Positions 2,156-25,001 of a stretch of DNA of 64,000 nt are shown piece after piece. Each line of letters opens with the position of its first letter. Position 1 is the first letter of the stretch. The notes under the pieces are model-generated. The model searched no databases. It worked only from the letters and a program-made list of their open reading frames with translations, and had not been told where the DNA came from. Source of the stretch: a bacterium (GTDB lineage: Archaea > Micrarchaeota > Micrarchaeia > Micrarchaeales > CABMGC01); contig JAKBPE010000001.1 in the NCBI GenBank assembly GCA_021829835.1, positions 352-64,351 on the forward strand, written 5' to 3'. A program made the position numbers and the translations under genes.

Positions 2156-2822
2156 ATCCCTGGATGTATATGTCTGAGGATAGTTTTCTGCGCGATACGC
2201 TGTGAAGAATTACCTTCCCCTTTCCATTGAATTTTGCAAGAAAGAGGCCTACCCCACCAAACATCGCAGTCCTTATATTATCGACAAATGTTATTTTGTA
2301 GCTCAGGCCTCCTGAAAAACCTGCTATGTGTCCGGGGTCTACTTCCAGAGGGATAGTGCCGTCAAGGTCATATTCGACTATGTCACCGACAACATGCAAG
2401 AATACAGTACCAGGCCCTACAAACTTCTGGAGTATCAAGCCTGCTCCTCCAAAGAACGCCGCGCCTAAGCCTATTGTTTCCATGGTAAATTTAACGCTGT
2501 CAGTTGCTGCCAGAAATGCATAATCCTCAGATACGAAGACCTCTCCTTCTCCAAGGGTTATGGCGCGTATCTTGCCAGGCATTATTCCTGAAAGGGAGAC
2601 AGAACACCTTCCCGTTTCTGCTGTAAAGACAGTAAGCATTGCTGTGGCTCCGGTCACTTTTCGCTCTATTGCGCTGACTAGGCCTCCTACAAGCCTCGGC
2701 TCCATCTTTATCTTTTCGCTCTTGCTCACGAGCTTTCCCGAATCGGCATATATCTTTTCGCCTTCATTGAGGTGGATTGATACTGCCTGCATTGACCCGC
2801 CGAGTATAGTGTAGTCCATCAT
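2121..2822 (-). CDS. AIM24/DUF124 (TIGR00266) family protein
   Basis: The 233-aa length and beta-rich sequence (SGKLVS..., GPGTVFL..., GKGKVILHS) resemble the DUF124 family. A 4-nt overlap with the gatE stop suggests one operon. Confidence 0.55.
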   Translation of the reverse strand: MMDYTILGGSMQAVSIHLNEGEKIYADSGKLVSKSEKIKMEPRLVGGLVSAIERKVTGATAMLTVFTAETGRCSVSLSGIMPGKIRAITLGEGEVFVSEDYAFLAATDSVKFTMETIGLGAAFFGGAGLILQKFVGPGTVFLHVVGDIVEYDLDGTIPLEVDPGHIAGFSGGLSYKITFVDNIRTAMFGGVGLFLAKFNGKGKVILHSVSRRKLSSDIYIQGYEQTKGDSSGK

Positions 2823-6013: not shown

Positions 6014-6153
6014 ACTTTATGCATATGTTAATTCTCTTTAAATTACTTTTGCTGTTTGAAATTTTTTATGTGGAATTTCCGATTTGGCAGATGGCGGTAA
6101 TTCTATTCGGAGATATGCAAAGTTAGTTTGCCTTCCCAAGGTTTAAGCAGATG

Positions 6154-7452: not shown

Positions 7453-7535
7453 TTGGCATTACCGAGATATTAATAGTGCTTCAGATTTAAAAATAGTCAG
7501 GATAATTCGTGCTAAATCCACAATATGTTTTTCTT

Positions 7536-8300
7536 TTACTCCTTTACCATTCGGCTTCTTATTATTCTTTCTAATTTTGCACCGAATTCCTCGCGGTATT
7601 TTTTAAAGCGGATGACATTGAGTTCTTTTTCTGATAGCTTTACAGCGAATGTGTCTCCCGGATGTAGGGTTGCCACTTCTATCCCATCATACCTTAATCT
7701 GCCATTATACTTGATTATTTCTATCTCTATCTGACGTTTTGGGCCTGCTATTAAAGGGCTCCTATATGGGCCGTCTACATTTATCGGGGTTATGCAGAAG
7801 ACATCAGGATCCATTATTATAGGACCTCCTGCCGACTTGTTGTATGCGGTCGAGCCTACAAGGCTGGCCATTAATACTCCATCCCCACTCATAACAAAAG
7901 GGTATATCTCCTTCCTGTTTTTCTTATAGGTTTCATATATCTTAAAGCTTACTTCCTCTCGCTCGTTAGTCATTACTGCCTCGTTTACAACATAGTATCT
8001 CTTATTCTTGTATTCGAGTTCCATCTTGTTTCCCAGCTTTTCTATCGAGTAATCCCCTTCCTTCAGTTTTTCTATCGCGTAGTCTATCTCGTTTAGGCTT
8101 ATGTCAGAGTAATAACCTATACTGCCCTTGTCAAAACTTCTTATAGGAAGTATAGGCCCTTCAAATTCCCTTGCTGCTTTTGTGAATGTCCCATCGCCGC
8201 CTACTGCAATGCAGATGTCTCCTTTAGGCCCTGTCTTGAACGCTTTTCTTATCTTTGATATCTCGGGATATTCCTTTTTTGCAAATATTGTCACTTTCAT
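7536..8300 (-). CDS. nadK: NAD kinase
   Basis: It carries the GGDGT motif (IAVGGDGTFTKAA) and is 254 aa. Its start overlaps the lpd stop by 1 nt. Confidence 0.85.
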   Translation of the reverse strand: MKVTIFAKKEYPEISKIRKAFKTGPKGDICIAVGGDGTFTKAAREFEGPILPIRSFDKGSIGYYSDISLNEIDYAIEKLKEGDYSIEKLGNKMELEYKNKRYYVVNEAVMTNEREEVSFKIYETYKKNRKEIYPFVMSGDGVLMASLVGSTAYNKSAGGPIIMDPDVFCITPINVDGPYRSPLIAGPKRQIEIEIIKYNGRLRYDGIEVATLHPGDTFAVKLSEKELNVIRFKKYREEFGAKLERIIRSRMVKE

Positions 8301-9673
8301 TAATTACCCCTCTTTTCTCTTCCGTAAAAGAAGTGCAGCGGCCTGCCTAAGGCAGCTTCAGCCGCTTCCTGGATTCCCTCGCTGTATGTAGGATGCGGAT
8401 GTATGGTATCTGCAATGTCCTCCAGCGTTGCGCCCATCTCTATTGCAAGTGCGGCCTCAGCTATCATGGAATTCGCATCATCTGAGACTATCTCAATGCC
8501 TTCTATCAGATCATTGGAATCATATGCAACTTTAACAAAGCCTTTTGTGCGGTTCAGCGCAACTGCCCTTCCCAGAGCAGTAAGTGGAAATTTTTTAACT
8601 GACAATCCTTCCCCGGATATTCTGCCAGCTATAGCTATCTCAGGATCCGAGAATATGACAGAAGGTATGACTATATTGTCAAAACCCGAAGATTTTCCTG
8701 CAGCAACCTCTCCTGCGACTACTCCTTGGCGTATAGCTTTATGGGCAAGCATAGGCTCGCCTACGACATCACCTATAGCTAATATGTTCGGGTCTGTAGT
8801 CCTCATCGCACTGTCTGTGGATATAAATCCTTTACCATCGATTGAGACTTTGGTGTTTTCGAGACCTAGCCCTTTTGTGTAAGGATGGAGGCCTATGGCT
8901 ACTACGATTATATCTGCAGGAATGCTCTTACCATCACTCAGAGTTACAGAGTTTTCAGTATGTGATACAGGTTCGCTGTTTTTATGTATCTCTATGCCTA
9001 GAGATTCCATCCTTGAGACAACCAGTTCAGTGGCTTCGGGATCAAAATGTGACAAGACCCCAGACCTTGCTATTATATGCACTTTTGTGCCAAGCTTTGC
9101 ATATAGAGTTGCAGTCTCTACAGCGACATATCCTGCACCTATTATGGCCATTGTTTTAGGTATTATGTCTAGAGAAAGAGCAGTCTTATAGTCAATTATA
9201 TTTCCGCCGTATTCGAACCCTTTTAGCACGGAAGGCTCAGATCCTGTTGCAATTATAGCCTTCCCGAATTCCAGAGTTCTTCCGTCTGTAAGCTGGAGTT
9301 CATTTGACGAAACAAATACGGCCTCAGCCTTTGCTACTTCAATTTGGTTGGATTTGCATAGGAATGCCACGCCTTCTTCCAGTTTTTTTGAGACTGAAAT
9401 CCTCCAATCGTACATCTTTTTAGGATCTATTGACAAGGTACCAGAAATACCGAATTCTTCCGCGTGCTGTGCGCTGTAAAATAAATCAGCTATATGAATA
9501 AGTGTTTTAGATGGTATGCAGGCATAATTAAGGCAGTGGCCCCCGAGTTTATTCTTTTCTATCAACGTTACGCTCTTGCCGATTTGTGATGCTCTTATTG
9601 CTGCGACATAACCGCCCACGCCGCCACCTATCACTGCAATGTCTACTTCTTCAGGTATAGATCCCATTACCAT
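8300..9673 (-). CDS. lpd: Dihydrolipoyl dehydrogenase / pyridine nucleotide-disulfide oxidoreductase
   Basis: It has the FAD fold GGGVGGYVAAIRA, the redox disulfide GGHCLNYACIPSK and the C-terminal HPHPTYSE dimer-interface motif. Confidence 0.88.
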   Translation of the reverse strand: MVMGSIPEEVDIAVIGGGVGGYVAAIRASQIGKSVTLIEKNKLGGHCLNYACIPSKTLIHIADLFYSAQHAEEFGISGTLSIDPKKMYDWRISVSKKLEEGVAFLCKSNQIEVAKAEAVFVSSNELQLTDGRTLEFGKAIIATGSEPSVLKGFEYGGNIIDYKTALSLDIIPKTMAIIGAGYVAVETATLYAKLGTKVHIIARSGVLSHFDPEATELVVSRMESLGIEIHKNSEPVSHTENSVTLSDGKSIPADIIVVAIGLHPYTKGLGLENTKVSIDGKGFISTDSAMRTTDPNILAIGDVVGEPMLAHKAIRQGVVAGEVAAGKSSGFDNIVIPSVIFSDPEIAIAGRISGEGLSVKKFPLTALGRAVALNRTKGFVKVAYDSNDLIEGIEIVSDDANSMIAEAALAIEMGATLEDIADTIHPHPTYSEGIQEAAEAALGRPLHFFYGREKRGN

Positions 9674-9795
9674 AGAAACAGGAATAGTTGAAACTCCAGT
9701 AATAAATAATTATCGTAGATTTTTTGATGATAAAAAAAATTTGCATAGCCTCCCGCATCCCGAGTAGTCGGTTTTCATTTCGGAAATAGATGATT

Positions 9796-12700
9796 TCAAT
9801 AGGTTACAGGTGGAGGCACATGTATATTGCTGTTTTTCGGATTTGGTTCCCCATTGTTTGGTGTGTTCTTCTTTCCCTTGTCCTTTAGCATTGTTGTATA
9901 TATGAGGTATATAAGGATTACCGCAATGGCTACAATCAAGATTGATATCTCAGCCTTTTTGCTCTCTAGGGCTATAAGTAATGAAGATTTTTCCGTTGAT
10001 GAGTTCTGGGATGTGCTGACTGAAGTTGTATTCACAGTCTTCTTTATTGTTGTAGTGTTGGTTTTCGACACATTCGTAGTAGATGGTTTCGATTTGGGCA
10101 CATTCGACTTCATAAGTGCAAGAAGGATATCTTTAGGAATCTGGAATGATATTGTGCAGAGCTTTGAGTTTATGGTGAAATTGGTTATCATCTTCCAGGA
10201 ATTGCCAGAGTATTCAAATGGGAATGTCTCGTTCTGAGGCATGCTGCATGAGTAGTGGAGATCTGCATTTATTGAAAGGTTTGAGTATTGCGGATACGTA
10301 ATATTGAGAACATATAGCTTCGTATATTCGGAAGGAGGGGCTGGAGATTCCTGTGTGGAATTCGTTATGGAGATTAATGCGGATGAAGGGATTGCTTTGG
10401 TTGGATTTATTGCAAATACAGATGATGTCTTCTCGTAGTTTATTATGCTCTGATGGCCTTTTGTAGAATTGATTGTGATTGAGAGATTGCTGTTTGTTGA
10501 ATTGTATAGTGTTATAGATCTACCCGTGTTTTGGATGTTTGGAAGCGTAGTCACGTTTAGTATCTTCTTGCCTGGAAGCGGTACAACGCATACATTTGAT
10601 GCGATTGTATGCACAGCAGGTATGTAGGAGATATTAAGCAGTCTTATTATGTAGTCGTATGATGCAGTGCCTCCTATTATCTCTGTAGAGTTAGGCGAGA
10701 GAGTATACTGCAGGCCGTCTATTGTGATTCCCGTATCAGTAGGCGATATGTAGTTGGCGCGTATGTTAAAGGATTTTCCAGTAAAGTTCACTACGGCGAA
10801 ATCAGGGTTCGTAAGATTTGTTACCAAATAACATGTTGAATTTAGGTTTATTACAGATGGTTTGAATGTTCCTCCGCCTCCTGCGCCTGCGGTACCTGAG
10901 CCTGAAGAGCCACTGCTGCCTGAACTGCCACTGCCTCCACCACCGCCTCCGCCGCCTCCGCTGGGTGGTGTGGGGGTAGACGCACTACTTACTGTTATTT
11001 CAGTTGTCTGTGAATATGTGTTATAACCTGCAGAGTCAGTGACTTCTAGGCAATAATATGCAGTAGAGGATGGCGTTGCCGTATAACTGCTTGTATTGGT
11101 GCCGGATATCTGCAAGTCAGATGTACATGAGGAAGATGGTCCTGAGATCCATGTGTATGTGTATGGAGGTGTGCCGCCTGAGACTGAAGATGTGAAAGTA
11201 AGGCTCTGGCCTGTTGTTATGGACTGTTGTGTGGATGGAGATATTGAGACAGATAAAGGTGTCTCGCTTGCGAATACACCTACAACAGGATCATTTGGTA
11301 TGTTAAATTTAATACTGCATGGATTCGATGAGGAGTAAAGTATTGGAATTGGAGACCATACACTTCCATTTAGCAAATATGGAGTAACTGAACTGTATTT
11401 ACATGCGTATGAAACAGTGAGATTTGATTCTGGATTTAGAGAATATGGATTTGATTCGTTAATATACAGAACCAGTATTTTGATTGGTTTTGATCCTAGA
11501 GAGGGAATGGATGTGTTGGCTGTTTCATTCGCTACAACTATGTTTTCTAGAATACTTCTATTGAATATGGATGATAATGAGATTGTTGAATTGAATTTAG
11601 GATATTTGAGATCTACTGAATAGTTATAAGATAAGAAGAGCTGCTGAGGCAGACCCGAAGAAGTGTTTCCAACTAATTCTACTTTGTCATAACTTCTAAA
11701 GACACTGCTTGTATTTAGGCGAGGTTCTTTTGTTAGGAGGATATTATTTGTCTGAGTATTTGGGCCTGTTGCTATCTGGCTTGATGTAAGTCCGTAGAAC
11801 TTATTTCCCAATATCGATGCTGTTACGTTTGGATCGTCATTTACCACAGCTACTGCCGAAGAAGAATTAAGATCATTAAGTATTGTGTTGTTAATGACTT
11901 GTAGATTCGAATTTGAGTGAAGATTGCCTTCTTCCCCGAAAGAGATTATTGCAGGATTTCCGCTGAATGGTCCTTGTTCGATAGTATTGTTTTCTATTAA
12001 GGCATTTCCCCCATTAGGAAGATCTACACTATAACTTGCTGTGCCGTTTTCATCTTGTATCCTGTTGTCTATTATTACAGTGTTCTGCGCACGGCTCTTT
12101 ATTTCATGGCCTACTGAAGCGGCGTGAACATAGCTGTGCTTTATAGTAAACAGTTTTATGTCGTTTATGTACATGTTGTGGGTATAACCATACCCAACAG
12201 AGGAAACATTGTATACTCCATTATGGTAAAATTCGCTATTTTCTATTAGTATTGTTCCGTTAGGGTCTGGAGCCGCAAGGAGTCCATCCTGATTATTATA
12301 GAAATAACTGTTGTTTATTATCATATTTCCTCCTTCATATCTGATTCCTGCACCATTGGAGGATGAGGGATCTGAAAATGCTCCTGAAAATGAGAAATGA
12401 GTTATTGTTACAGTCACCCCGCTGCCTCCTACATCGAGTATTCCCTTGTCATTAGGTGGCTGTTCTGTTGCAACCATATTTACTACGCCGCCTACGCCTT
12501 GTAAAGTGAGATTGAAATTTATCGTCTCTGGAAAGTCGTTAGTATAGGTACCTGCTGCGACTTTTACTGTATCACCACTAGTTGCATTTGCAATTGCTGC
12601 TGCTATGCTATGATATTCTAAGCCAGGACCTACCGTTAGAGTAGTTGCATTCGAAGTTATGATTATAGGCACAACACTTATTGTTACTGGGGATGAACAT

Positions 12701-15700
12701 CCCGATTCCGGTGCATATGCAGAATCCTTTACTAGATAAGAGTAAGTAGTGTTCTGTGAAGGGCTTTCCGTGATGCCCTGTGAGACTGCGTTTGCAATAG
12801 GTGTCTGGCATGAACTCCCGGTATACCATTGATATGAATATGGTGTTGTGCCTCCTGAAGGGTTTGCAGTGAGGGTAACAGATTGTCCGGCATTGATTGC
12901 AGTTGATGATGCAGTTATGCTTCCTATGTTAAGTGGGGAATTTACAGTTATAGTATCAGGAGAGGAACATACAAATACAGAGCTGTTTGTTGTTTCGCCT
13001 GCCCCGTAAGAGTATGTCGACGATGAAGTTAACGAAATATTATATGAAGAGGATGTCGCACCTGAGATTGCGGTTGAACAACCGCTGCCTGAATACCATT
13101 GGTATGTGTATGGGAAAACTCCACCTGAAGGATCAGCAGAGAGAGTAATATATTGCCCTGAGTCAATTGTTGGGCTTGAAGGATAAATGGGATTTGCAAC
13201 AAGAGGCGTGCTTTGGCTATATCCTTTTGGAGAGAAGTCGAATGCTTCATCAAGCCCTGTTGATGTTCTTGCAGAAGTATCGGTTTCTGCAGGATATGTT
13301 GAAAGGATCCAGTTATAGGCCTGTATTGCTGTTGCGTTATTGTCTATGGAGATTATGCCAGCACTGGACATAAGAGCCAGTTGTATGTAGTTAATTTCTC
13401 CTTCGGCAGTATTTGCGCTTTGATTGTACAGGGATGTTCCAATTGAGCCTGAAGCTATATCTGCTTCCCAAACCTGTTTCCATGTCTGTAGTACTGGATT
13501 TGTTACGTTTGCTGAAGAAATATTCAAGACAGGAAGGTCGTATGTTATTCCTGCTTCAGGATTAAAGCCTTCAGGACCAGCAGTAAATCTTCCTGATATG
13601 AAATTAGTCATCCATTTTAGATAAGTCAATGCTCCTGGAACGTTACGTTCTACAGCCGCTATTACAGTGCTCGCGAAGTAATCTTGCTGCCATGGAGCCT
13701 GAATGCAGTTGGTGCCTGGACATGGGTAATAACCATATGCGCCTACGATATATCCATGAGGTTGTACAGAACTGAATGGGGAACTGCTATTTACATATGT
13801 GTCGTATAGATACTGGAATTCTACAGCTTGGTTGTTCTTGAAGAAAGAACTAAGCGGATCTGAATTTGGATCTGCAAATGCAGCATCTATTATCTGGCGA
13901 AGTCTCCAAGCATAGCCTCTTACTTGATCTGCGCCTTCTGCTACGATTACTCTGTTGTTATGCCATGTTGTATATCCAGGATTTACATCAGTAAGGGCAA
14001 ATGTTCCTTGTGCGTCTACCTGGTCAAGATAATGCATGCTGCCAGTAAGAATGTAAGGAATATATGATAGATCTGGCCAATGTGCAGGATCTATACTGAC
14101 TGGATCGCTTCCGTCTGCAAATTGTGTAACACATCCATAAAGCTCGTAACATGCACCATATGGAGGCGGATCAACACTAATATTTGGAAATGTTCCGGTA
14201 TTTAGATAAGAATTTCCTTGAGGATAGTAATAATCCCAGCCCATCGCGCCTGCCTGAGTGTCTGTAAGTTGTGCAAAATTTGATACAGTCTGGTTTTGGC
14301 TGAGCAGCCATGCCGCATTCCAGGTAGGCTGAGGTCCTATATCAGGCCTTCCACCACTTGCTGGCATGTAGAAAGTGATTCCAAAACCGCTCATTATTGT
14401 ATTGTATGCTATTGCAGTTGCAGAATTGCCTAGATTCTCAAGTGAAGAGGCGTAATACGAGACAAGCCCTTTTGAAAGTCCATCTGAAAGATTGTAGGGC
14501 TGTATTGCACCTACCTGTTCCAACTCTGCTATATTATGTACTACGTTTACTTCAGGAGCTCCGTTGCTCCAGGTTTCCCAATTCCATTCGGTGTAGTGAG
14601 GCTGGAAGATATTATTCTTTATAAGAATAGGTTGATTATTTTCTTTGATTACAAGATTATAATTTACGTCGCCACCTACAGGCTGCATTGCGTAATCATT
14701 TGCAAATAACACATCAGTATGTGTTGATCCATCTGCGTATTTTCTTATGTCGAACATTACATGGAATGATCCGCTGACATTGTAATTCACCCTTCCTTCA
14801 ACGCTTTGATTGCCTTGAAGCCAGTATGTAACCGAATTTGATGCGAGTGCGTTTGCAAGCACCGTTGATGCGTTTATCTGATAGTTAGTAACATTATAAG
14901 AAAGGGGTATTTTTTCAATTTCTGAACAATACCAGACAGTACAGCTTACATATAGATATCTGCCATGTGGGCTAATAGTTAACACTTTTGGATTTCCTCC
15001 TGCCTGAGAAGGATTGATGTCTGAGATTGTCCTTATTGTTTTATTTGTAGTCAGATTGAATACAGTTATTGTGCTTCCTGCGTCATCTGAATAGCCATCT
15101 AGTATATATGCAATTGTTCCTGAAGGGTTTATTGTCATTGCTCCTGGTCCGTAACCTATATTAGTTATATTGTAGATAGGCTCTTCTGTTGTTGTATTTA
15201 TTACACTTATTCTTGAACCTTGTATATCCAATACATAAACAAGGTTGCCTGAAGGACTTATTATTGCGATTGATGGACCAGAGTTTGCATAATTTCCTAC
15301 TGTTATTTCCTTAGATATGGTATCGTTGTTAAGATTTACCACACTTACTTGAGATCCTTGCCATACGCCATCATTGTTTACCCCTAGATCGGTAACATAT
15401 GCAGTTGTTCCTGAAGAGGTTATTTCTATGTCGCTTGGGTTCCAGAAGCCACTTATAGTGTTTGTTACTTGATAGGTGGTAAGATTTAATGTGCTTATGG
15501 AGTAATTTCCTGAATTTATTACATAGGCGAGTGGTTTTGTTGGGCTTAGGCGTATAAATGAGGGTCCATCAAATCCTTTTATAACACTGGTTACCTGATG
15601 AGTTACAAGATTTACTATCTCAATAGTGTTATTTCCCTGTGATGCCACATATGCGCTTGTTCCGGAAGGGAATAGAACTATGCTAATTGGTTCAGATCCT

Positions 15701-16653
15701 ACAACTAATGCATTTGTTACCTGCATTGTTGATGTGTTAAAGGTTAAGAGAGTAGAGTTTTCATAGCTTAGTGCATAGCCAGTTGTGCCGTTTGGATTTA
15801 AGGCCATGGCATATTTATGTTCTGTTGTTCCTGTCTGTGTTGAATATGCAGAGAGTGCGTTGGTTATATTGGGTTCACTCATTAGAGTGAGATTCACCTG
15901 CATGTTGTATCCGTTGGAAAGAATGCTCTGCAGTGTGAGTGGAATTTCCGGGTTTGCAGATACAATTCTAAACATTCCTTTGTAAAGTGAATCTGGAGGC
16001 ATTTGTGGGGCGTCCAATGTTACTACAACCATTTTTTCAGTACCGTCCGAATAGGTATTCTTTACGTCTGTCTGAACAGGATACTGAACTCCGTTTATAA
16101 CAGCTGCTATCGAATCACCAATTGGCACTTTCCCTCTTGGAAATATTTCAGCAAATGTTATGTAATGGGAGGGTATTGTCGATGGTTGGTTATTTTGTAG
16201 GTCGAAACTTACAATGTCACTGGAATTCACAGGCTGAAGCATTTTCGGTATGAAAACAAGATATGATGAAGTTAGATTGTAGCCTGCTGAGCAGGAAGAA
16301 ACAGAGGAATTTGTAGATTCTGTTACAAGATAGCTGTATACCATTGATACCTGTGGCTCGGGAGCAGCATATGTTGATGATGTAGCTCCAGATATTGCAT
16401 CTGTAGAGCTGCAGGCAGGATCCCCAGATTCGTTTGCATACCATTGATAATCGTATGAGGATGTGCCGCCTGAAGGATTTGCTGTCAGGGTTACATTGGG
16501 ACTTATTGATTGGTTGTATGTGCCTGCAGTTATATTGCCTGCGGTGATTAGGGGAGATGTGAAAACAGGAGTTTTAGATTGATTAGGTTTGTTTTGTGAG
16601 AGGTAAGAATACCTAAATGTGATAAATGAGATTATTAGGATTACCATCGCCAT
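9796..16653 (-). CDS. Giant (2285 aa) membrane-anchored mosaic surface protein combining Ig-like repeats, a YVTN-type beta-propeller, an unknown central domain, a right-handed beta-helix and a C-terminal anchor module
   Basis: The ORF is uninterrupted with a hydrophobic N-terminus. It has SGGTxPYxYQWY Ig-like repeats and repeated ...AYV.N.G.N.ISV.N..T blades at about 14940-15810. Beta-helix turns occur at about 11700-12640 (NNSYFYNNQDGLL, ENSEFYHNG, IDNRIQD, IENNTIEQG). A Gly/Ser linker lies at about 10868-10985, followed by a C-terminal TM helix (LIVAIAVILIYLIYTTML) and a basic tail. N-x-S/T sequons are dense. Confidence 0.85.
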   Translation of the reverse strand: MAMVILIISFITFRYSYLSQNKPNQSKTPVFTSPLITAGNITAGTYNQSISPNVTLTANPSGGTSSYDYQWYANESGDPACSSTDAISGATSSTYAAPEPQVSMVYSYLVTESTNSSVSSCSAGYNLTSSYLVFIPKMLQPVNSSDIVSFDLQNNQPSTIPSHYITFAEIFPRGKVPIGDSIAAVINGVQYPVQTDVKNTYSDGTEKMVVVTLDAPQMPPDSLYKGMFRIVSANPEIPLTLQSILSNGYNMQVNLTLMSEPNITNALSAYSTQTGTTEHKYAMALNPNGTTGYALSYENSTLLTFNTSTMQVTNALVVGSEPISIVLFPSGTSAYVASQGNNTIEIVNLVTHQVTSVIKGFDGPSFIRLSPTKPLAYVINSGNYSISTLNLTTYQVTNTISGFWNPSDIEITSSGTTAYVTDLGVNNDGVWQGSQVSVVNLNNDTISKEITVGNYANSGPSIAIISPSGNLVYVLDIQGSRISVINTTTEEPIYNITNIGYGPGAMTINPSGTIAYILDGYSDDAGSTITVFNLTTNKTIRTISDINPSQAGGNPKVLTISPHGRYLYVSCTVWYCSEIEKIPLSYNVTNYQINASTVLANALASNSVTYWLQGNQSVEGRVNYNVSGSFHVMFDIRKYADGSTHTDVLFANDYAMQPVGGDVNYNLVIKENNQPILIKNNIFQPHYTEWNWETWSNGAPEVNVVHNIAELEQVGAIQPYNLSDGLSKGLVSYYASSLENLGNSATAIAYNTIMSGFGITFYMPASGGRPDIGPQPTWNAAWLLSQNQTVSNFAQLTDTQAGAMGWDYYYPQGNSYLNTGTFPNISVDPPPYGACYELYGCVTQFADGSDPVSIDPAHWPDLSYIPYILTGSMHYLDQVDAQGTFALTDVNPGYTTWHNNRVIVAEGADQVRGYAWRLRQIIDAAFADPNSDPLSSFFKNNQAVEFQYLYDTYVNSSSPFSSVQPHGYIVGAYGYYPCPGTNCIQAPWQQDYFASTVIAAVERNVPGALTYLKWMTNFISGRFTAGPEGFNPEAGITYDLPVLNISSANVTNPVLQTWKQVWEADIASGSIGTSLYNQSANTAEGEINYIQLALMSSAGIISIDNNATAIQAYNWILSTYPAETDTSARTSTGLDEAFDFSPKGYSQSTPLVANPIYPSSPTIDSGQYITLSADPSGGVFPYTYQWYSGSGCSTAISGATSSSYNISLTSSSTYSYGAGETTNSSVFVCSSPDTITVNSPLNIGSITASSTAINAGQSVTLTANPSGGTTPYSYQWYTGSSCQTPIANAVSQGITESPSQNTTYSYLVKDSAYAPESGCSSPVTISVVPIIITSNATTLTVGPGLEYHSIAAAIANATSGDTVKVAAGTYTNDFPETINFNLTLQGVGGVVNMVATEQPPNDKGILDVGGSGVTVTITHFSFSGAFSDPSSSNGAGIRYEGGNMIINNSYFYNNQDGLLAAPDPNGTILIENSEFYHNGVYNVSSVGYGYTHNMYINDIKLFTIKHSYVHAASVGHEIKSRAQNTVIIDNRIQDENGTASYSVDLPNGGNALIENNTIEQGPFSGNPAIISFGEEGNLHSNSNLQVINNTILNDLNSSSAVAVVNDDPNVTASILGNKFYGLTSSQIATGPNTQTNNILLTKEPRLNTSSVFRSYDKVELVGNTSSGLPQQLFLSYNYSVDLKYPKFNSTISLSSIFNRSILENIVVANETANTSIPSLGSKPIKILVLYINESNPYSLNPESNLTVSYACKYSSVTPYLLNGSVWSPIPILYSSSNPCSIKFNIPNDPVVGVFASETPLSVSISPSTQQSITTGQSLTFTSSVSGGTPPYTYTWISGPSSSCTSDLQISGTNTSSYTATPSSTAYYCLEVTDSAGYNTYSQTTEITVSSASTPTPPSGGGGGGGGGSGSSGSSGSSGSGTAGAGGGGTFKPSVINLNSTCYLVTNLTNPDFAVVNFTGKSFNIRANYISPTDTGITIDGLQYTLSPNSTEIIGGTASYDYIIRLLNISYIPAVHTIASNVCVVPLPGKKILNVTTLPNIQNTGRSITLYNSTNSNLSITINSTKGHQSIINYEKTSSVFAINPTKAIPSSALISITNSTQESPAPPSEYTKLYVLNITYPQYSNLSINADLHYSCSMPQNETFPFEYSGNSWKMITNFTINSKLCTISFQIPKDILLALMKSNVPKSKPSTTNVSKTNTTTIKKTVNTTSVSTSQNSSTEKSSLLIALESKKAEISILIVAIAVILIYLIYTTMLKDKGKKNTPNNGEPNPKNSNIHVPPPVTY

Positions 16654-16848
16654 TAGTAAGATTATCAGGATCTGATTTTTGTTGTTGATTGGATCATCCT
16701 GATTTTAATGATGCCTACTACTTTAAAAAAGTTTTGGCGATATTAGGATTCAATGGTAAATTCTAAGTGAATTTTAAGTGCCATGTGAATTATATAAAAA
16801 AATGAAAGAGATAGTTTTGCAGTTAGCTAAAGCTGTGATAAAACAATA

Positions 16849-18137: not shown

Positions 18138-19055
18138 GTGGTTATAAACATGGAATTTTTAAATGGTAGGAAAGTTGTAGATGAAACTGTCCTCAAATTT
18201 GCGGCGATTCCAAGAAAAAGATTCGGAAGCAAAAGAGATAATGGAAGTGTTGTAATTATAGGGGGAAGTTCTGCTTATCATGGCGCTCCTGTTCTGGCTT
18301 CCCTGGCAGTATCGCAATCGTTGGCTGCTTTGAGAATAGGCATCGGGTATGCGGTGCTTTACGTTCCAGAATCAATATTGAATGTCGCAAGAAAACTCTC
18401 GCCTAATGTAATAATAAGACAGTTTGGGATAGACAATATAGGCGAAGGAAGTTTAAGAGATGTTTATGAATCCATAGAAAAAGCAGATGTGGTCATAATA
18501 GGTACTGGAATCGGCAGGAAAAAGAGCTCGCTTAACAGTTCTGCTAGGATAATTGATTATTCCATAACACATGATAAAAAAGTAGTGGTTGATGCTGACG
18601 CTATTTACTCAGTAAAATTCCTGAAGAAGACAGGCTCGAAAATGCTGGTGACACCACAAAAATATGAATTTGAAGAGCTTTCCGGCAGAATTCCTGAAGA
18701 TGAACACAATATGAAGGGAAGAATTGCAGGTGCTGAGAATGCTGCGAGAAGACTAGGCTGTTGCTTACTGCTTAAAGGACATAATACGATAGTTACTGAC
18801 GGAGAAGAAACAAGAATAATATGTCCACACCGTTCCACGCTTGCAACTATGGGCACAGGTGATGTCCTCTCAGGAATGATAGGAGGATACGCAGCATCAG
18901 GAGCAGACATTTTCAACTCAGGGATTGCAGCCGCATATCTCCATGCCAAAATAGGCGATAAGTTGTATGCAGAGAAAGGAAACCATATTCTGGCATCTGA
19001 TGTAGTAGATTCAATACCTGAAATAATAAAGAAATATGATAAGGAAATTGATTGA
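18138..19055 (+). CDS. nnrD: ADP/ATP-dependent NAD(P)H-hydrate dehydratase (YjeF C-terminal / carbohydrate kinase family)
   Basis: Motifs are IIGGSSAYHGAPVLA and MGTGDVLSGMIGGY. The ORF caller uses a GTG start; an ATG at 18150 is also possible. Confidence 0.8.
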   Translation: MVINMEFLNGRKVVDETVLKFAAIPRKRFGSKRDNGSVVIIGGSSAYHGAPVLASLAVSQSLAALRIGIGYAVLYVPESILNVARKLSPNVIIRQFGIDNIGEGSLRDVYESIEKADVVIIGTGIGRKKSSLNSSARIIDYSITHDKKVVVDADAIYSVKFLKKTGSKMLVTPQKYEFEELSGRIPEDEHNMKGRIAGAENAARRLGCCLLLKGHNTIVTDGEETRIICPHRSTLATMGTGDVLSGMIGGYAASGADIFNSGIAAAYLHAKIGDKLYAEKGNHILASDVVDSIPEIIKKYDKEID

Positions 19056-19127
19056 TCTTGGGTTTTGAAACTTTTCGAGAGGATACTACTGCTTTATTTA
19101 TTCGTGTTCCGAAAATACAACATATCT

Positions 19128-22100
19128 CTATTTTTTCCCAGGTTGGGAATCTGATTTGGAGATTATTTTTGGATCGGCAGGCGGCGGCTTCTGTTTTTCT
19201 GCGGTGTATTTCCCTTTTATGCGCAGGTAATAATAGACAGACAGGATTACTATTGCAATAAATATAGCCAGCAGGAGGTATTCATAGGTATTATATTGAA
19301 GATATTCGGAATTTGTTGTGTTGTTCACTTCAGATGTATTTACAGTGATTATATGGGTGCTTATATTTCTTTTTACAGTATGATTTGATATTTTGGATGT
19401 GTTGATAGTTGGAGTTGAGTTTGTAATTTTTGTATATCTACCGAGTGCAATTATAGGATCGCCCCCAGTAGTTAAAGATACAGTACAAGATTTTGAATTG
19501 ACAGTGAATTGTGTAAACTGTTCCCATGAAGAATTTGACAAAGCGAATGGGAATATCTTGTAGAAAGGTATGCTGCAGTTGTATTTCATTGTTATGGTCA
19601 TGGTTGTGTTTGTAGGAATTGCATTTTGAAGATTTATTCCTTTCACGGAAATATTCTGAACCAGAATCTTATTGTATCCTTGAGGCAGAGGAGGCAGATA
19701 TTGTGCAAGTGTTAAGTTTCTTACAGTAAATCTCTGTTGGGCAGTAAATGCAGATGTTATATTTACAGTTGTTTTCTCAGCCAAAAGATTTAGCTGTACA
19801 GGCACTGCGTTGTAGGTCATAATGTCATAAGTCTCGTTCTGGCCAGTTATATTAATAGGTTTGAGATTTGAAATAGCAATTACCTTTAATGCTATTGTGC
19901 TTTTTACAGGAGTATCGGAAAGGTTGTATATTGACATGTTATATAGGTAGGGTTCACCTGAAGCTTCAAAGATGGTTTTTGATTGGTTTGGATATAGAAC
20001 ATAGTTTTTGCCATTTACAGTTATACCTGCATTTGCATTAGTTATAAAGTTTTCTACAAAATCTAATTTTGTACCTAGAAGTGTTAAATTAAATACAGTT
20101 AGGGGAGTTATGCCGAAGACAACAAATCCGTCATTTATACTTGCCATTTGCGGTTTTGTTCCGGGAAAATTTATATTTGTGCTGTTGCCGACCGCTCCAC
20201 CGCCTGATGATGAGCCGCCTGAAGGACCTGATGAAGTTCCTGAAGAGGTTGAAGGAGAGGAAGAACTACTGATAGATATATCTGCAGTTGGTGAGTTTTC
20301 GATTTCATTTACTGTTGCTGAATCTGTGACTGTGACGTAGTATTTGACGGTCTGCGGCGTTGCGCCTGCAGGTTCCGTAAATATTGAGGATATTGCACCT
20401 GGAATTGCATTCGCGGAGCCTGAAGTGTCATTGTACCATTGGTAGAAGTAAGGAGTAGTACCTCCTGAAACTGATGCGTTTAAAGTGATTGTCTGTCCAG
20501 AAGAATAGGTACCTGATGGAGGGCTTATTGTTGGAGTACCAAGTGCGAGATTGGCTGTGACTAAATCCGTTCCTGATGTTGCGGATGTTGGCGTTGTGGC
20601 TGAATCGGTGACTATGTAGCAGTAATAGGTTGAGGAAGATGGCGAAGCGTGAATAGTATTTGAGGTTGCGCCTGTGATTGCAGTATCGGACGAGCAGGTT
20701 GATGATGTTCCATTATACCATTGGTAGGTGTATGGCGTCGTTCCTCCTGACGGATTTGCGGTTAATGTTACGCTCTGACCTGAATCTATTGTCGGGGATG
20801 AAGGCGTTACTGATCCTGCAGATAGTGCGGTGTTTACCACATCGGAATCTGTTGCGGATGTAGTTGATTCTGGCGTTGTGGCGGAATCGGTGACTATGAT
20901 GTAATATTTGACTGTCTGTGCGGTTGCGCCTGCGGTTTCCGTGAATGTTGCGGATGTTGCGCCTGGAATTGCATTCGCGGAGCCTGAAGTGTCGTTGTAC
21001 CATTGGTATGAATATGGAGTCGTTCCGCCTGAAACTGATGCGGTCAGCGAAACGCTCTGACCTGCGTCGTATGTTGCAGATGAAGGAGAGATTGTCGGCG
21101 TTACGAGTGCGGAATTTACTGTGACTAAATCCGTTCCTGATGTTGCGGATGCTGGAGATGTGGCGGAATCCGTGACTATGTAGCAGTAATATGTGTTTGA
21201 TGTTGGACTTGCGGAATACGTGGATGACGTTGCGCCTGAAATTGCGGTATCTGATGAGCACGTCGATGACGTTCCACTATACCATTGGTAGGTGTATGGC
21301 GTCGTGCCTCCTGACGGATTTGCGGTTAATGTTACGCTCTGACCTGAATCTATTTTTGGAGATGAAGGCGTGACTGCGTTCGCCAGCAATGGGGAGTTGG
21401 TTGAATAAGTTAAAGTGTTGAAAGTTGTGGAGGGAGTGGTTGCACTATCTGTTATAAAGATATTAGCAGTAAATGTGCCTGCGCCCCATATGCTATTTTG
21501 AACAAAAGAGATACTATTTGATGACACTGTTATGCCAGTATAAAGCGCATTATAAACTAAAGAGCCGATTGAATTGTAAACTAAAAAGTTATAAGTGTAG
21601 GGAGAGGTACCGGTTCCACTTGTATCTGCAGTTAATACCTGAGTCTGACCTTCATCTATTAATGAATTTGAAACTTTCCACGAATTTGAGAGGGCAGAAT
21701 TGACCGAAAACGGATTTGAATAAATGGTGTTGGCTATAACATTTGTTGTGGCGGAATCGGTAATTATTGTATTTTCTACCAGATTCCCAAGCCCTACCAT
21801 GGAATTTTGGACTTGTTCGCAGTTTGATTTGGAATTAGCAGTAACAGAACCGAATAAAGCATCAGCTTCAATACTATTTGTGTTTGCTTGTTGAACAATT
21901 AAAAAATTATAAGTAAATGGCGAAGTTCCTCCGTTGGTGCTTGCTGTGAGGCATACATATTGCCCTGCGTCCAACAAGGTGTTGCTTGGATTTGTAATTG
22001 TTGGGACCAATGCAGGATTTAATGTCATCACTCCGCTTTCAACGCTATTTAATGTAACAGGAGTCGTGGCAGAGTCTGTGACAATAACATTTGCCACTAC

Positions 22101-25001
22101 AGTATTTCCAATATATTCGGATGGGAAAGCCCATAAAAAGTTTGCTGAGGCGCTGCTGCTGACTGCATTGTATGAATTTGTTATAAAAGAATCAGTTATA
22201 CTGTTTACAACTATTACATTATAGGCATAATTCGGAGTTCCTCCTGTCCATAATGAATTAAAATTAACATTCTGGCCATAGTCATAACTTTCTGCTGTTG
22301 CTGGTGTGGCAGTCGGTTGAGTCATAACAGAATTGACTATATATGTTTCTGTTGTGGAATTTGAAGTTTCCGGAGTAGTAGCTGAATCTTTAACTTCAAT
22401 ATAATACTTCATTGTTCCTGTCATTCCTGCTGTTGCCGTGTATGTAGATAAAGTTGCTCCACTTATTACTGTTGGTGTTCCTGTTGTATCGTTATACCAT
22501 TGATAAGAATAAGGTGTAGTTCCTCCTGAAACTGATGCGGTCAGCGAGACGCTCTGACCTGAGTCATAAGTTGCAGATGAAGGAGAGATTGTCGGCGTTC
22601 CGAGTGCGAGATTAGCTGAGACTGTATCTATCGGAGAACCTGAAACCGCATTAGGTGTGGCAGAGTCTGTCACAATATAGCAGTAGTATGTAGTTGAAGT
22701 TGGAGATGCTAAATAATTTGCGGAAGTGGCGCCTGAAATTGCGGTATCTGATGAGGAACAAAGCCCTGAACTTGAAGAGGCAGTATACCATTGGTATGAA
22801 TATGGGGTTGTTCCGCCTGAAACAGCTGAAATTAAATTGACTGACTGCCCTGAATCTAATGTAGGAGAATAAGGAGTGATAGGATCTGCTAGTAATGCAT
22901 TATTTGCCCCTGCCATTGAACCTTCGCTTGTAGTAGGCATGATGTCTTTTGGAGGGGCGGTTCTAACCCTATACCATTGTGTATACTCGTTAGATGCAAA
23001 AGACACCCCACCATAATAAACTGCCCCTAATTCTGGGAATAATAAGCCTGAAGCATGAACATAGATGCTGAAAAATGGGTCAGTGTAGGTTTGATAGGTT
23101 ATTCCTAAATGGTCTGAAACATTATAAAGCATAGAATATATGCCAAAGGCATCTGGTGGGTAGTTAGTAGTGTAGAAAATGCCACCATTACCATCATATC
23201 CACAGACATTACATCCTTCTTGTGTTTGCCCTAAAAAGACAATAGAATCATTGCCTACATTATCCATGAAGCCACCGATTGTAAAAGAACCATCATATGT
23301 TGATGGGGTTGTTGAGAGTGCCTCAAAGACATTTCCTGCGGCATATCTTGTTGTGGCATTTATTGCTTCGGCATTGGCAATTGTAGATGAACCTATTAAT
23401 GTAATTCCATTATTTATGGTATAAGTTATTCCGTTTACATGCCATTTTGAACTGAGAGTCGTTCCGGCAAAATCAGAATAGAAGCTAAACACGTTGTTTC
23501 CATTGTCATACTCTGCATAGTCAGAACACGTCGCAGTCGCGGCTGGGTTCGCACAGCTGAGCTGAGGCGCTTCCCCTGTGCTCACTCCGTTCAGCAAGTT
23601 TGTGCTGGTGCTTGCGATTCCGAGGTAAATCGTGTAGGGGATTGTCATCGATGCTGGTAGCTCGTTGACTGTGTTCGCTCCGAGGTTCACCCACCAGAGG
23701 ACGTTCGCTGATGTTGAGAGTGCTGTGGACTGCTCGTTCAGGACGTTTCCTTCCAGCCAGCTTGGAATTATCGTTCCGTTGGCGTAGAAGAACTCGGTGT
23801 TCATCAGGTTGGAGGCTAGGTAGCTCGAGAACGGGATGGCGTTGAAGCCTATAATGTTTCCATTGCTTGAGACGCCTATCGCTAGAGGCGTGTTTGCCGA
23901 GACGGCTACTGACTGCGTGTTGATGATGTTGATTGGGATGTAGTAGAGGATGTTGGCTGGGCTGACTACTGGATCGTCGAGGCTGTAGTTCTGGTTTCCA
24001 AGGCCCTCGAATGTGAAGTTGTAAGGCTCTGTTGGGCTTAGGCTGAATGTCTTTGTGATGCTTACTGAGCCCATGGTGTTGTCCGAGAAGCTGAGAATCG
24101 TGTTCGAGCCTGCCTGTATCAAGGCGTTGAACGGCACTCTGTTTCCCTGAACCAGATGGCTGATTAGCTTAACTGTGATGTTGAGAGGCGCACAGTCGTT
24201 CAGCCCCCAGCATCCGTTGTAGACAGCTACAGGCAGATGGTAGCTTCCTGGCTTGGTCAGCGTCTCGTTGAAGAGCCTTGAGCTTAACTGGATGTAGGAG
24301 TAGCTTTGGTTCTTGCTTACCTGAAATTTGTTGAATTGGACTGAGCCATAGATTGAATTGTAAGTTGCGTTTATTTTGTCTGAGCCTGCTGGTATCGGCT
24401 TTGCGTTACTGTATAGTGAACCATATGGCAGAGTAGCAGTCTGATTGTGGATTAAGCCTAAGTTTATTGGTGAATTTGGGTTTACGCCTATAGCTTCCAA
24501 AGCGTTGGATTGCTGTGAGTTCCACTCGGTACTCCATTGGATAGAATTAAAGGAAGTGGAGAAATACAGTATTGTTGGTTTTGATAAGGAAATTACATTA
24601 GATACTGGCACTGCGTTGTTTATAATGTAGTTCATCCCATTGTAGCTTATTGAATTTTGACCTGGTTCGTAAAGAACATTTCCATTTAAAGTGTTTGCTG
24701 TAAGCATGTTCATGGATATTTGGAAGATGTCTGTGTAACTTGTGATGTTTAGAGACCGGTTGGTTAATCCTGAAAGAGGTCCAAGCCGAATAAGATAAGT
24801 TGAGCCTGGGGGCAGGCCGATGATTTCCAGCATGGCATTTTCTGGGCTGCTTGTGGATTGGGAAGTGGACTGATTTGGAGATGCGTGAAGCATAAACATT
24901 AAAGAAACAATCAGAACGGCTGAGATTGTCAGAATTGTTGAGAAGAAAATTAAATAATCATAGTCGATTCTTTTGAAGAAATCTGTCTTGCAATTATTCA
25001 C
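19128..25001 (-). CDS. Giant (1957 aa) membrane-anchored surface protein with a DUF2341-like plus LamG-like N-terminal region, about 11 Ig-like repeats and a C-terminal anchor module
   Basis: The ORF is uninterrupted with an N-terminal TM segment (IFFSTILTISAVLIVSLMFML). A DUF2341-like pattern is present (YYIPINIINTQS...FFYANGTIIPSWLEGN...NVLWWVNL...YTIYLG), followed by a concanavalin/LamG-like stretch. Next comes the Ig-like array, then a Ser/Gly linker at about 20195-20275. The C-terminus is a TM helix (LLLAIFIAIVILSVYYYL) plus a basic tail. Confidence 0.85.
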   Translation of the reverse strand: MNNCKTDFFKRIDYDYLIFFSTILTISAVLIVSLMFMLHASPNQSTSQSTSSPENAMLEIIGLPPGSTYLIRLGPLSGLTNRSLNITSYTDIFQISMNMLTANTLNGNVLYEPGQNSISYNGMNYIINNAVPVSNVISLSKPTILYFSTSFNSIQWSTEWNSQQSNALEAIGVNPNSPINLGLIHNQTATLPYGSLYSNAKPIPAGSDKINATYNSIYGSVQFNKFQVSKNQSYSYIQLSSRLFNETLTKPGSYHLPVAVYNGCWGLNDCAPLNITVKLISHLVQGNRVPFNALIQAGSNTILSFSDNTMGSVSITKTFSLSPTEPYNFTFEGLGNQNYSLDDPVVSPANILYYIPINIINTQSVAVSANTPLAIGVSSNGNIIGFNAIPFSSYLASNLMNTEFFYANGTIIPSWLEGNVLNEQSTALSTSANVLWWVNLGANTVNELPASMTIPYTIYLGIASTSTNLLNGVSTGEAPQLSCANPAATATCSDYAEYDNGNNVFSFYSDFAGTTLSSKWHVNGITYTINNGITLIGSSTIANAEAINATTRYAAGNVFEALSTTPSTYDGSFTIGGFMDNVGNDSIVFLGQTQEGCNVCGYDGNGGIFYTTNYPPDAFGIYSMLYNVSDHLGITYQTYTDPFFSIYVHASGLLFPELGAVYYGGVSFASNEYTQWYRVRTAPPKDIMPTTSEGSMAGANNALLADPITPYSPTLDSGQSVNLISAVSGGTTPYSYQWYTASSSSGLCSSSDTAISGATSANYLASPTSTTYYCYIVTDSATPNAVSGSPIDTVSANLALGTPTISPSSATYDSGQSVSLTASVSGGTTPYSYQWYNDTTGTPTVISGATLSTYTATAGMTGTMKYYIEVKDSATTPETSNSTTETYIVNSVMTQPTATPATAESYDYGQNVNFNSLWTGGTPNYAYNVIVVNSITDSFITNSYNAVSSSASANFLWAFPSEYIGNTVVANVIVTDSATTPVTLNSVESGVMTLNPALVPTITNPSNTLLDAGQYVCLTASTNGGTSPFTYNFLIVQQANTNSIEADALFGSVTANSKSNCEQVQNSMVGLGNLVENTIITDSATTNVIANTIYSNPFSVNSALSNSWKVSNSLIDEGQTQVLTADTSGTGTSPYTYNFLVYNSIGSLVYNALYTGITVSSNSISFVQNSIWGAGTFTANIFITDSATTPSTTFNTLTYSTNSPLLANAVTPSSPKIDSGQSVTLTANPSGGTTPYTYQWYSGTSSTCSSDTAISGATSSTYSASPTSNTYYCYIVTDSATSPASATSGTDLVTVNSALVTPTISPSSATYDAGQSVSLTASVSGGTTPYSYQWYNDTSGSANAIPGATSATFTETAGATAQTVKYYIIVTDSATTPESTTSATDSDVVNTALSAGSVTPSSPTIDSGQSVTLTANPSGGTTPYTYQWYNGTSSTCSSDTAITGATSNTIHASPSSSTYYCYIVTDSATTPTSATSGTDLVTANLALGTPTISPPSGTYSSGQTITLNASVSGGTTPYFYQWYNDTSGSANAIPGAISSIFTEPAGATPQTVKYYVTVTDSATVNEIENSPTADISISSSSSPSTSSGTSSGPSGGSSSGGGAVGNSTNINFPGTKPQMASINDGFVVFGITPLTVFNLTLLGTKLDFVENFITNANAGITVNGKNYVLYPNQSKTIFEASGEPYLYNMSIYNLSDTPVKSTIALKVIAISNLKPINITGQNETYDIMTYNAVPVQLNLLAEKTTVNITSAFTAQQRFTVRNLTLAQYLPPLPQGYNKILVQNISVKGINLQNAIPTNTTMTITMKYNCSIPFYKIFPFALSNSSWEQFTQFTVNSKSCTVSLTTGGDPIIALGRYTKITNSTPTINTSKISNHTVKRNISTHIITVNTSEVNNTTNSEYLQYNTYEYLLLAIFIAIVILSVYYYLRIKGKYTAEKQKPPPADPKIISKSDSQPGKK
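20280..22920 (-). repeat. In-frame array of Ig-like coding repeats inside the 1957-aa gene, with three A+B repeat pairs that are near-identical at DNA level
   Basis: Segments at 20707-20800 and 21271-21363 match almost base for base at an offset of 564 bp (188 codons). Similar matches link 20398-20470 to 20959-21060, and 21001-21110 to 22500-22610. Confidence 0.85.

Follow-up and report, generated by a model that had tools for sequence, protein, structure and literature searches.

A single gene on the minus strand of a 64,000-nucleotide window (NCBI GenBank assembly GCA_021829835.1, contig JAKBPE010000001.1, positions 352 to 64,351; coordinates below are those of the window) encodes a protein of 2285 amino acids (aa) that is best explained, judging by its sequence, as a type-I-like cell-surface glycoprotein. 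Two parts of this protein, referred to here as module 1 and module 2, belong to large, conserved bacterial families, and a seven-bladed YVTN beta-propeller is nested within the first of them. With about even confidence, we propose that the protein is tethered to the cell surface and binds or processes glycans there, and that some of its modules were acquired horizontally from bacteria. An earlier note, made from the sequence alone, had proposed a glycosylated surface protein with a role as an adhesin or in polymer processing, and this remains the best reading. The frame is uninterrupted, as the note had stated, with 2285 codons from the ATG open for 6.9 kb. Its features, from the N- to the C-terminus, were as follows.

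9796..16653, minus strand: whole gene, 2285 aa plus stop codon (reading of the open reading frame (ORF); same gene in independent assemblies).
16600..16653, minus strand: aa 1-18, N-terminal hydrophobic segment MAMVILIISFITFRYSYL, putative signal peptide or signal anchor (read from the sequence).
16249..16599, minus strand: aa 19-135, immunoglobulin-like (Ig-like; SprB-type) repeat 1 (motif at aa 61; SprB and Ig_3 matches).
15874..16248, minus strand: aa 136-260, N-terminal beta-barrel (RIFT, PcRGLX_1st-like) and the strand before the insertion (PF19501; predicted local distance difference test (pLDDT) of the model >90).
14896..15873, minus strand: aa 261-586, seven-bladed YVTN beta-propeller nested in the module 1 family (profiles, model and alignment).
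14533..14895, minus strand: aa 587-707, beta-sandwich of the module 1 family (AlphaFold pLDDT mostly >90; kept across homologues).
13204..14532, minus strand: aa 708-1150, helical (alpha/alpha)6-toroid-like domain (AlphaFold and Foldseek).
12649..13203, minus strand: aa 1151-1335, Ig-like repeats 2 and 3 (Pfam and motif matches).
11704..12648, minus strand: aa 1336-1650, module 2, right-handed beta-helix of a conserved bacterial family (homologues; conserved columns).
11263..11703, minus strand: aa 1651-1797, domain G (about 150 aa), unknown fold (its end resembles that of domain J; present in the archaeal relatives P0026 and P0047).
10963..11262, minus strand: aa 1798-1897, Ig-like repeat 4 (best Ig_3 stretch at aa 1802-1860; motif at aa 1825).
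10870..10962, minus strand: aa 1898-1928, Gly/Ser hinge (sequence reading).
10099..10869, minus strand: aa 1929-2185, domain J (about 260 aa), next to the membrane and rich in sequons (5.4 per 100 aa), unknown fold (shared with the 1957-aa paralogue).
9949..10098, minus strand: aa 2186-2235, Ser/Thr/Asn-rich stalk (44% Ser plus Thr; 8 sequons per 100 aa).
9886..9948, minus strand: aa 2236-2256, single transmembrane (TM) helix, anchor (Kyte-Doolittle window peak 2.7).
9796..9885, minus strand: aa 2257-2285 plus stop codon, short Lys-rich cytoplasmic tail (sequence reading).

The surface location is predicted because of the N-terminal hydrophobic segment, the single C-terminal TM helix, which is followed by a basic tail, and an excess of N-glycosylation sequons. 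The N-x-S/T sequon occurred 76 times, versus 43.8 ± 5.5 expected from 2000 composition-preserving shuffles (z = 5.8; shuffle maximum 63), and its density was 3.3 per 100 aa versus about 0-1 in most other ORFs of the window. The Ig-like repeats were recognized by the Pfam profiles SprB (PF13573; E 2.6e-11, 43.4 bits for a cut-off of 28, four stretches) and Ig_3 (PF13927; E 4.3e-9, 37.2 bits for a cut-off of 30), and the motif SGGxxxYxYxW was found at four sites (aa 61, 1176, 1266 and 1825). All the modules named in the earlier note were recovered, including the Ig-like repeats, the Gly/Ser hinge, the membrane anchor and the extremely frequent sequons, but its list had missed the barrel at aa 136-260 as well as domains G and J. 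As isolated segments, neither G nor J had a Pfam match at E <= 10, and J had no match in the PDB either; a two-Cys unit made up of the last 58 or so residues of G resembles the last part of J (BLASTP between the two domains, E 3e-5). Proteins anchored by the PGF-CTERM/archaeosortase system carry a PGF motif ahead of their C-terminal TM helix, whereas no such motif precedes the helix in ...ALESKKAEISILIVAIAVILIYLIYTTMLKDKGKK... and NCBIfam gave no PGF-CTERM match.

By alignment, aa 136-260 and the region that the earlier note had set apart as an unknown 550-aa domain are one conserved, uncharacterised family of about 700 aa. The region (aa 587-1150) is indeed rich in Trp and Tyr (2.7% and 6.9%, versus 1.1% and 5.9% in the whole protein), but it is not an orphan. 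A search with aa 590-1150 returned 43 proteins, most of them about 600-950 aa long, which covered about 95% of the query at 27-40% identity. When homologues were aligned against aa 136-1150, their N-termini fell on aa 136-258 and the remainder on aa 589-1150. An exhaustive profile search retrieved 2020 clusters (50% identity) at E <= 1e-30, the top 150 of which matched essentially full-length. In species-representative genomes, 79 loci were found, nearly all in Acetobacteraceae or other Alphaproteobacteria, including Acidiphilium and several metagenome-assembled genomes (MAGs) from acid mines. Members often carry RTX, CBM60, Calx-beta or DUF4082 extensions, so that the bacterial proteins are probably secreted and associated with carbohydrates. 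Some long matched stretches in the representative search were considered as further insertions, but these proved to be RTX tails. The archaeal protein shares 32% identity with bacterial members in this module, compared with 43% among the bacterial members themselves. Likely archaeal module 1 sequences amounted to a handful, all fragments, with 42-67% identity to the 2285-aa protein; a metagenome scan for archaeal orthologues found none.

The barrel is the only part of the family with a Pfam counterpart. PF19501, the N-terminal RIFT barrel of PcRGLX, matched 15 of the 40 aligned members (best E 2.8e-6), and matched the 2285-aa protein weakly (E 0.012; 15.9 bits, for a cut-off of 22.1); module 1 is covered by no further Pfam family. 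When segments B, D, F, G and J of the protein were searched in isolation at E <= 10, the weak PF19501 match was again the only one obtained. The AlphaFold model of aa 136-1150 (pLDDT 83; predicted template modelling score (pTM) 0.78) shows, in order, the barrel, the seven-bladed propeller, a beta-sandwich and a helical domain, and that of aa 586-1150 alone reached a pLDDT of 85 and a pTM of 0.90. PcRGLX/YetA-like proteins consist of a barrel, a beta-sandwich and an alpha/alpha toroid. The module 1 models show this same order; beyond the barrel matches, there was no sequence match to the PcRGLX/YetA-like family (CAZy PL26, exo-rhamnogalacturonan lyase). The likeness suggested by the models and profiles is therefore one of architecture, and membership of PL26 or any other lyase family is not established.

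Foldseek searches with the 1015-aa model (aa 136-1150) returned propellers only and gave no information on the toroid. With aa 586-1150, the nearest solved folds were (alpha/alpha)6 carbohydrate-active enzymes, at probabilities of up to 0.99: GH121 HypBA2 (6M5A; E 2.9e-3) ranked best, and cellobiose and GlcNAc 2-epimerases, GH88/GH105 unsaturated glucuronyl hydrolases and PL15 lyases were also retrieved. Sequence identity to the toroid was 6-12% in all but one of the 50 listed matches, and these model-based matches point to a fold class only.

The earlier note had recognized a YVTN propeller, which is confirmed by TIGR02276 (NCBIfam; E 2e-10, score 40.5 for a cut-off of 27.85) and by PF10282, the seven-bladed "Lactonase" propeller of Pfam (E 2.1e-5, score 24.3 for a cut-off of 21.7). 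The best PDB sequence match of the 2285-aa protein was the Methanosarcina mazei surface-layer protein 1L0Q (E 6.4e-19). In the AlphaFold model the propeller has about seven blades of four strands, and Foldseek again ranked 1L0Q best (3e-17), followed by other propellers, mostly seven-bladed G-beta/WD40 chains. The modules are not strung together linearly as the note had described: the propeller lies inside the family of about 700 aa. At this site, the alignment shows about 10 residues in bacterial members and about 330 in the 2285-aa protein, and the propeller is therefore interpreted as nested: it was inserted into a loop of a family that already existed. The same insertion was present in the archaeal relative P0052 (54% identical).

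Module 2 itself had no Pfam match, even at E <= 10. Homologues at 50-60% identity number more than 1257. Several of those scanned, 52-60% identical to module 2 over about 95% of its length, matched PF13229 (Beta_helix) directly (E 1e-9 to 3e-11), and among the 120 listed, annotations of Beta_helix, CBM60, RTX or Hint domains are common. The beta-helix fold of aa 1336-1650 is predicted through these homologues, since sequences 52-60% identical to it match PF13229, and the right-handed beta-helix of the earlier note holds in this form. Conservation is high: 34 columns were invariant in 32 sequences, including G-H-E-I-K-S-R-A at aa 1515-1522, and of 93 columns with a conservation of 90% or more, the 2285-aa protein keeps 86. 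Conserved residues include H1492, N1493, H1516, E1517, K1519, R1521 and D1544 in module 2, and R769, D771, H858, D861, Y867, R912, R919, D991 and R1022 in module 1. The archaeal module 2 is as similar to bacterial members (55% identity) as these are to one another (58%), which suggests that it sits inside bacterial diversity.

Known families of beta-helix lyases and epimerases have catalytic and Ca-binding residues of their own, such as DPHD in C5-epimerases or a Lys/Arg pair in PL6. Module 2 has no DPHD motif, and has the invariant cluster G-H-E-I-K-S-R-A instead. A PDB profile search with the module 2 alignment gave only marginal matches to N-terminal caps (a tail fibre, 0.023; BcAlyPL6, 0.2; a pectinesterase, 0.65). 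Membership of PL1, PL3, PL6, PL9 or AlgE/AlgG was considered and rejected, given these marginal cap matches and the lack of DPHD. The motifs of GH28, PL6 and AlgE did not convincingly fit those of module 2, and no such family is claimed.

Modules 1 and 2 are also found joined in bacteria. In 4 of the 79 module 1 loci, both are encoded in one ORF of about 1500-1630 aa, in the same N-to-C order as in the 2285-aa protein. In three of these fusions (L023, L038 and L040), all in MAGs of acid-mine Proteobacteria, the linkers are of the RTX type, whereas the fourth (L027; JAYVXU010000041.1), from a MAG labelled Candidatus Adlerbacteria, of the candidate phyla radiation (CPR), has Pro/Thr linkers together with LamG_3 and PG_binding_1 domains. 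This fusion is 1629 aa long (L027, 9920-14809), and a second ORF of the beta-helix family lies 3 kb downstream (18159-21854). At another locus (L001) a stretch of 0.7 kb holding two short ORFs separates the two genes, and at L049 they lie within 10 kb of each other. Recurrent fusion, as Rosetta-stone-type evidence, suggests a shared substrate or pathway for the two modules.

The linkers between the modules differ by lineage (RTX, Pro/Thr, or the Ig repeats of the 2285-aa protein), and two archaeal relatives, P0026 and P0047 (57-60% identical orthologue fragments of a related species, on ENA contigs), have no beta-helix; the fusions therefore look independent across lineages. In P0026 and P0047 a third, different Ig-like domain stands where the 2285-aa protein has the beta-helix, and P0052 lacks Ig repeat 1, which indicates rapid module shuffling in this protein family.

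The named close relatives of both modules are Acetobacteraceae, and transfer of both from bacteria to archaea would be the parsimonious reading. The secreted RTX/CBM60 proteins of Acetobacteraceae with one or other module (for example in Roseomonas, Humitalea and Acidiphilium) and the fused bacterial forms are true homologues, with 27-40% identity to module 1 and 52-60% to module 2. They carry RTX (of the type I secretion system type), CBM60, Hint, LamG or PG-binding domains, and none of them has the propeller, Ig spacers or TM anchor of the archaeal protein. In the 2285-aa protein, Pfam detected no RTX repeats (HemolysinCabind), and the protein ends in a TM helix instead.

Under the proposed role, the TM helix, the Ser/Thr stalk, domain J and the Gly/Ser hinge would hold an ectodomain of about 1900 residues, presumably N-glycosylated, off the membrane. 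This ectodomain would display two enzyme-like modules of bacterial type, probably acquired horizontally from Acetobacteraceae-type neighbours, with the Ig-like repeats as spacers. The archaeal-type propeller, inserted in a loop of module 1, could provide a binding surface beside the toroid. Both modules would share one extracellular substrate, for which a polysaccharide, acidic or neutral, or a glycoconjugate is the likeliest candidate; the toroid module and the beta-helix would bind and cleave or modify this glycan, which might belong to the extracellular polymeric substances (EPS) of a biofilm or to the glycocalyx of a partner cell, so that a role in cell-cell contact is conceivable. A more specific version, which we regard as improbable, is that the two modules are founding members of two uncharacterised families of carbohydrate-active enzymes (CAZymes) acting sequentially on one extracellular polymer. 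Ultra-small episymbionts of both domains, this Micrarchaeota-like archaeon and a CPR bacterium, would have tethered the fused pair to their surfaces independently, and on attaching to a partner cell would use it to breach or reshape that cell's glycocalyx or EPS. In the archaeal version, the propeller would cover the active site as a lid that binds the host or has a regulatory role.

Several observations weigh against a glycan-processing role or against its details. The toroid matches were weak (all E >= 2.9e-3, with target-normalised template-modelling scores of 0.50 or less), and the PcRGLX lyase was not among the best 50 Foldseek matches of the toroid. No solved structure matched either module family by sequence (a PDB profile search with the module 1 alignment returned nothing relevant, only RTX repeats), and no characterised member of either family was found. 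Of the conserved columns of module 1 that could be aligned, the archaeal protein keeps 51 and has substituted 21, including R830P, R897W, D810Y and D707N; because several Arg and Asp residues are among those lost, the module may be non-catalytic or changed in specificity. The two families lie within 10 kb of each other in 5 of the 79 bacterial loci, a coupling that is recurrent but not general, and for both families the surroundings of the bacterial genes, made up of unrelated genes, give no functional clue. The neighbours of the 2285-aa gene in the window are likewise housekeeping genes, the archaeal relatives P0026 and P0047 do without the beta-helix, and the placement of the host depends on one marker, YchF, at 54-59% identity.

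A different explanation, which we hold as possible but on the unlikely side, is a non-catalytic, structural or adhesive envelope protein, such as an adhesin or a sheath associated with the surface layer (S-layer), in which the modules would serve as scaffolds or lectin-like surfaces. The same role has been proposed for YVTN/PKD/beta-helix proteins of Methanosarcina and for adhesin-like proteins of methanogens. The theme of propeller, PKD/Ig and beta-helix is established in the archaeal envelope (Jing et al. 2002, as cited in PMC10354927 and PMC5498576; for adhesin-like proteins with a beta-helix, PMC11532034). The best PDB match of any part of the protein is a surface-layer protein, 1L0Q, and several conserved polar residues of module 1 have been lost. 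Moreover, the heavy predicted glycosylation and the presence of a paralogue with the same anchor, described below, suggest an envelope protein family. However, the retention of nearly all the highly conserved beta-helix columns (86 of 93), with the invariant H-E-x-K-x-R among them, between archaea and bacteria at 55% identity would be unusual for a mere scaffold, and the bacterial members of both families are soluble and secreted, with carbohydrate-binding modules, a pattern expected of enzymes. We retain a tethered glycan-binding or glycan-processing protein as the preferred interpretation.

The earlier note had suggested that the protein could be a major glycocalyx component in a lineage suspected to lack a rigid wall; taken as a wall-less archaeon of the Thermoplasmatales type with an essentially novel combination of domains, we consider this version very unlikely. 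The protein is surface-anchored and sequon-rich, as such a component would be, the samples are of the acid-mine type, a setting in which Thermoplasmatales are abundant, and bacterial homologues of the modules come from acid-mine MAGs. However, the lineage appears to be another one. The YchF gene adjoins the 2285-aa gene, and 14 of its closest 120 homologues carry an organism name: 13 were assigned to Candidatus Micrarchaeota/Micrarchaeia or related ranks (54-59% identity), one to Marsarchaeota, and no named homologue among the 120 belonged to Thermoplasmatales. On this one marker, and with moderate confidence, the host is taken to be a DPANN archaeon of the Micrarchaeota-like type living in acid mine drainage. 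A cultured Micrarchaeon has an S-layer (PMC8975820), which makes a wall-less lineage doubtful. Micrarchaeota attach to wall-less Thermoplasmatales hosts, in an EPS matrix rich in galactose/mannose glycoconjugates (PMC8975820). The domain theme, in addition, had already been described, by Jing et al. in 2002. A 113-nt transfer RNA (tRNA) called by Rfam (53 bits) at 105-217 on the plus strand, which ARAGORN did not report, is probably an intron-containing archaeal tRNA; the window also carries a 5S rRNA along with this intron-sized tRNA.

An artefact, whether an assembly chimera driven by repeats or a pseudogene, is so improbable that it can be set aside: the Ig modules are repeated, 2.5 kb away there is a paralogue whose repeats are 40-57% identical, one other contig departs from the gene in its last 900 nt and beyond, and the exact protein is not indexed in a collection of 15 billion proteins, but the frame is open over 6.9 kb, the repeats (about 30-55% identical at the protein level) are too divergent to mislead an assembler, the domain boundaries agree with those of relatives from other species, and the gene recurs, with 0-2 nt differences and the same neighbours, in at least five independent metagenomes or MAGs (ENA ERZ27237009, ERZ27237515 and ERZ27237490; NCBI GCA_021845465.1; JGI 3300033990). 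The earlier note had named a chimeric misassembly as an outcome that would overturn its description, and the agreement of these assemblies refutes it. The divergent contig (L007; ENA ERZ27237454, contig k141_217828) carries its copy at 9825-16827. This copy is identical over the first 5960 nt and then has 115 substitutions in the last 900 nt or so (about 13%) and a shorter tail, with downstream DNA unrelated to the window; either strains have recombined within the membrane-proximal cassette, or the contig is chimeric at its end. The homologue search did not return the exact sequence either; 2285-aa products are called on several contigs in the same protein collection, and the absence looks like an indexing gap rather than biology.

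The general class of the 2285-aa protein is already known. The combination of YVTN propeller, PKD/Ig and beta-helix domains in archaeal surface proteins goes back to Jing et al. 2002 (Structure 10:1453), as reported in PMC10354927 and PMC5498576, and methanogens are well known to have adhesin-like proteins with beta-helix and Ig domains (PMC11532034). In the Micrarchaeon Mia14, large strain-specific PKD/YVTN surface proteins have been proposed as mediators of host contact, and several of its surface proteins are predicted to have been acquired horizontally from other archaea (PMC5498576). The earlier note had not seen its domain combination described; the theme itself had been, in the Methanosarcina and Mia14 proteins, but the RIFT-sandwich-toroid family with a nested propeller appears undescribed, within the extent of these sources. 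The Methanosarcina proteins are likewise archaeal envelope proteins with a seven-bladed YVTN propeller, Ig-fold repeats and a right-handed beta-helix. Their propeller stands in tandem, whereas here it is nested in another domain family. The Ig repeats of the 2285-aa protein are of the SprB/Ig_3 type, its PKD match being marginal (E 0.016), its beta-helix comes from a specific bacterial family, and it adds the RIFT-sandwich-toroid. The PKD, YVTN and CARDB proteins of Mia14 are also large surface proteins with YVTN and Ig-fold domains, probably from the same type of lineage and habitat (PMC5498576). The 2285-aa protein has neither CARDB nor LamG, and two enzyme-like modules of bacterial origin are not reported for the Mia14 proteins in the literature found.

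Two genes away from the 2285-aa gene, the window carries a paralogue, identified by Pfam and pairwise comparison.

19128..25001, minus strand: 1957-aa paralogous surface protein.

This protein has at least ten Ig-like repeats. Ig repeat 1 of the 2285-aa protein is 40-57% identical to repeats of the paralogue, and Ig repeats 2 and 3 are 43-52% identical to them. The two proteins have a C-terminal cassette in common, consisting of the last Ig repeat, the Gly/Ser hinge, domain J, the stalk and the TM helix (30% identity over 512 aa; 28-30% for domain J). The N-terminal head of the paralogue, of about 700 aa, differs from the 2285-aa protein and had no Pfam match. The organism therefore has a family of surface proteins with exchangeable heads on one stalk. 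Another surface glycoprotein may be encoded at 30935-32044 on the minus strand: this 369-aa ORF has 8% Asn and a sequon density of 3.25 per 100 aa, far more than the other ORFs have.

The 2285-aa gene appears, from the surrounding sequence, to be its own transcription unit. The 195-nt spacer upstream is A/T-rich with TATA-like runs and an oligo-T tract lies 3' of the stop codon, both as read from the DNA. On the plus strand, GC skew jumps from about -0.1 (2001-10000) to +0.25 (10001-12000) where the gene has its 3' end, even though every gene there lies on the minus strand; most likely, this jump comes from the C-rich Ser/Thr/Asn/Pro codons of the stalk and domain J and is not a replication feature.

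As far as we found, four points are new: the assignment of the "unknown" region to a large, uncharacterised RIFT-sandwich-toroid family; the nesting of a propeller inside this family; its recurrent fusion with a conserved beta-helix family in three unrelated lineages; and the finding that, in a DPANN-type archaeon, both modules are probably of bacterial origin. The nested propeller offers a clean example of domain insertion after a probable inter-domain gene transfer. Should the modules turn out to be inactive scaffolds, the protein would be one more large archaeal envelope protein. If they are active, they would provide a first function for two large bacterial families (at least 2000 clusters at 50% identity and more than 1257 sequences, respectively), which no specific Pfam family covers beyond generic beta-helix and N-terminal barrel matches. 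The 2285-aa protein would then be a concrete, testable candidate for how a DPANN-type archaeon handles the sugar coat of its host or the biofilm matrix.

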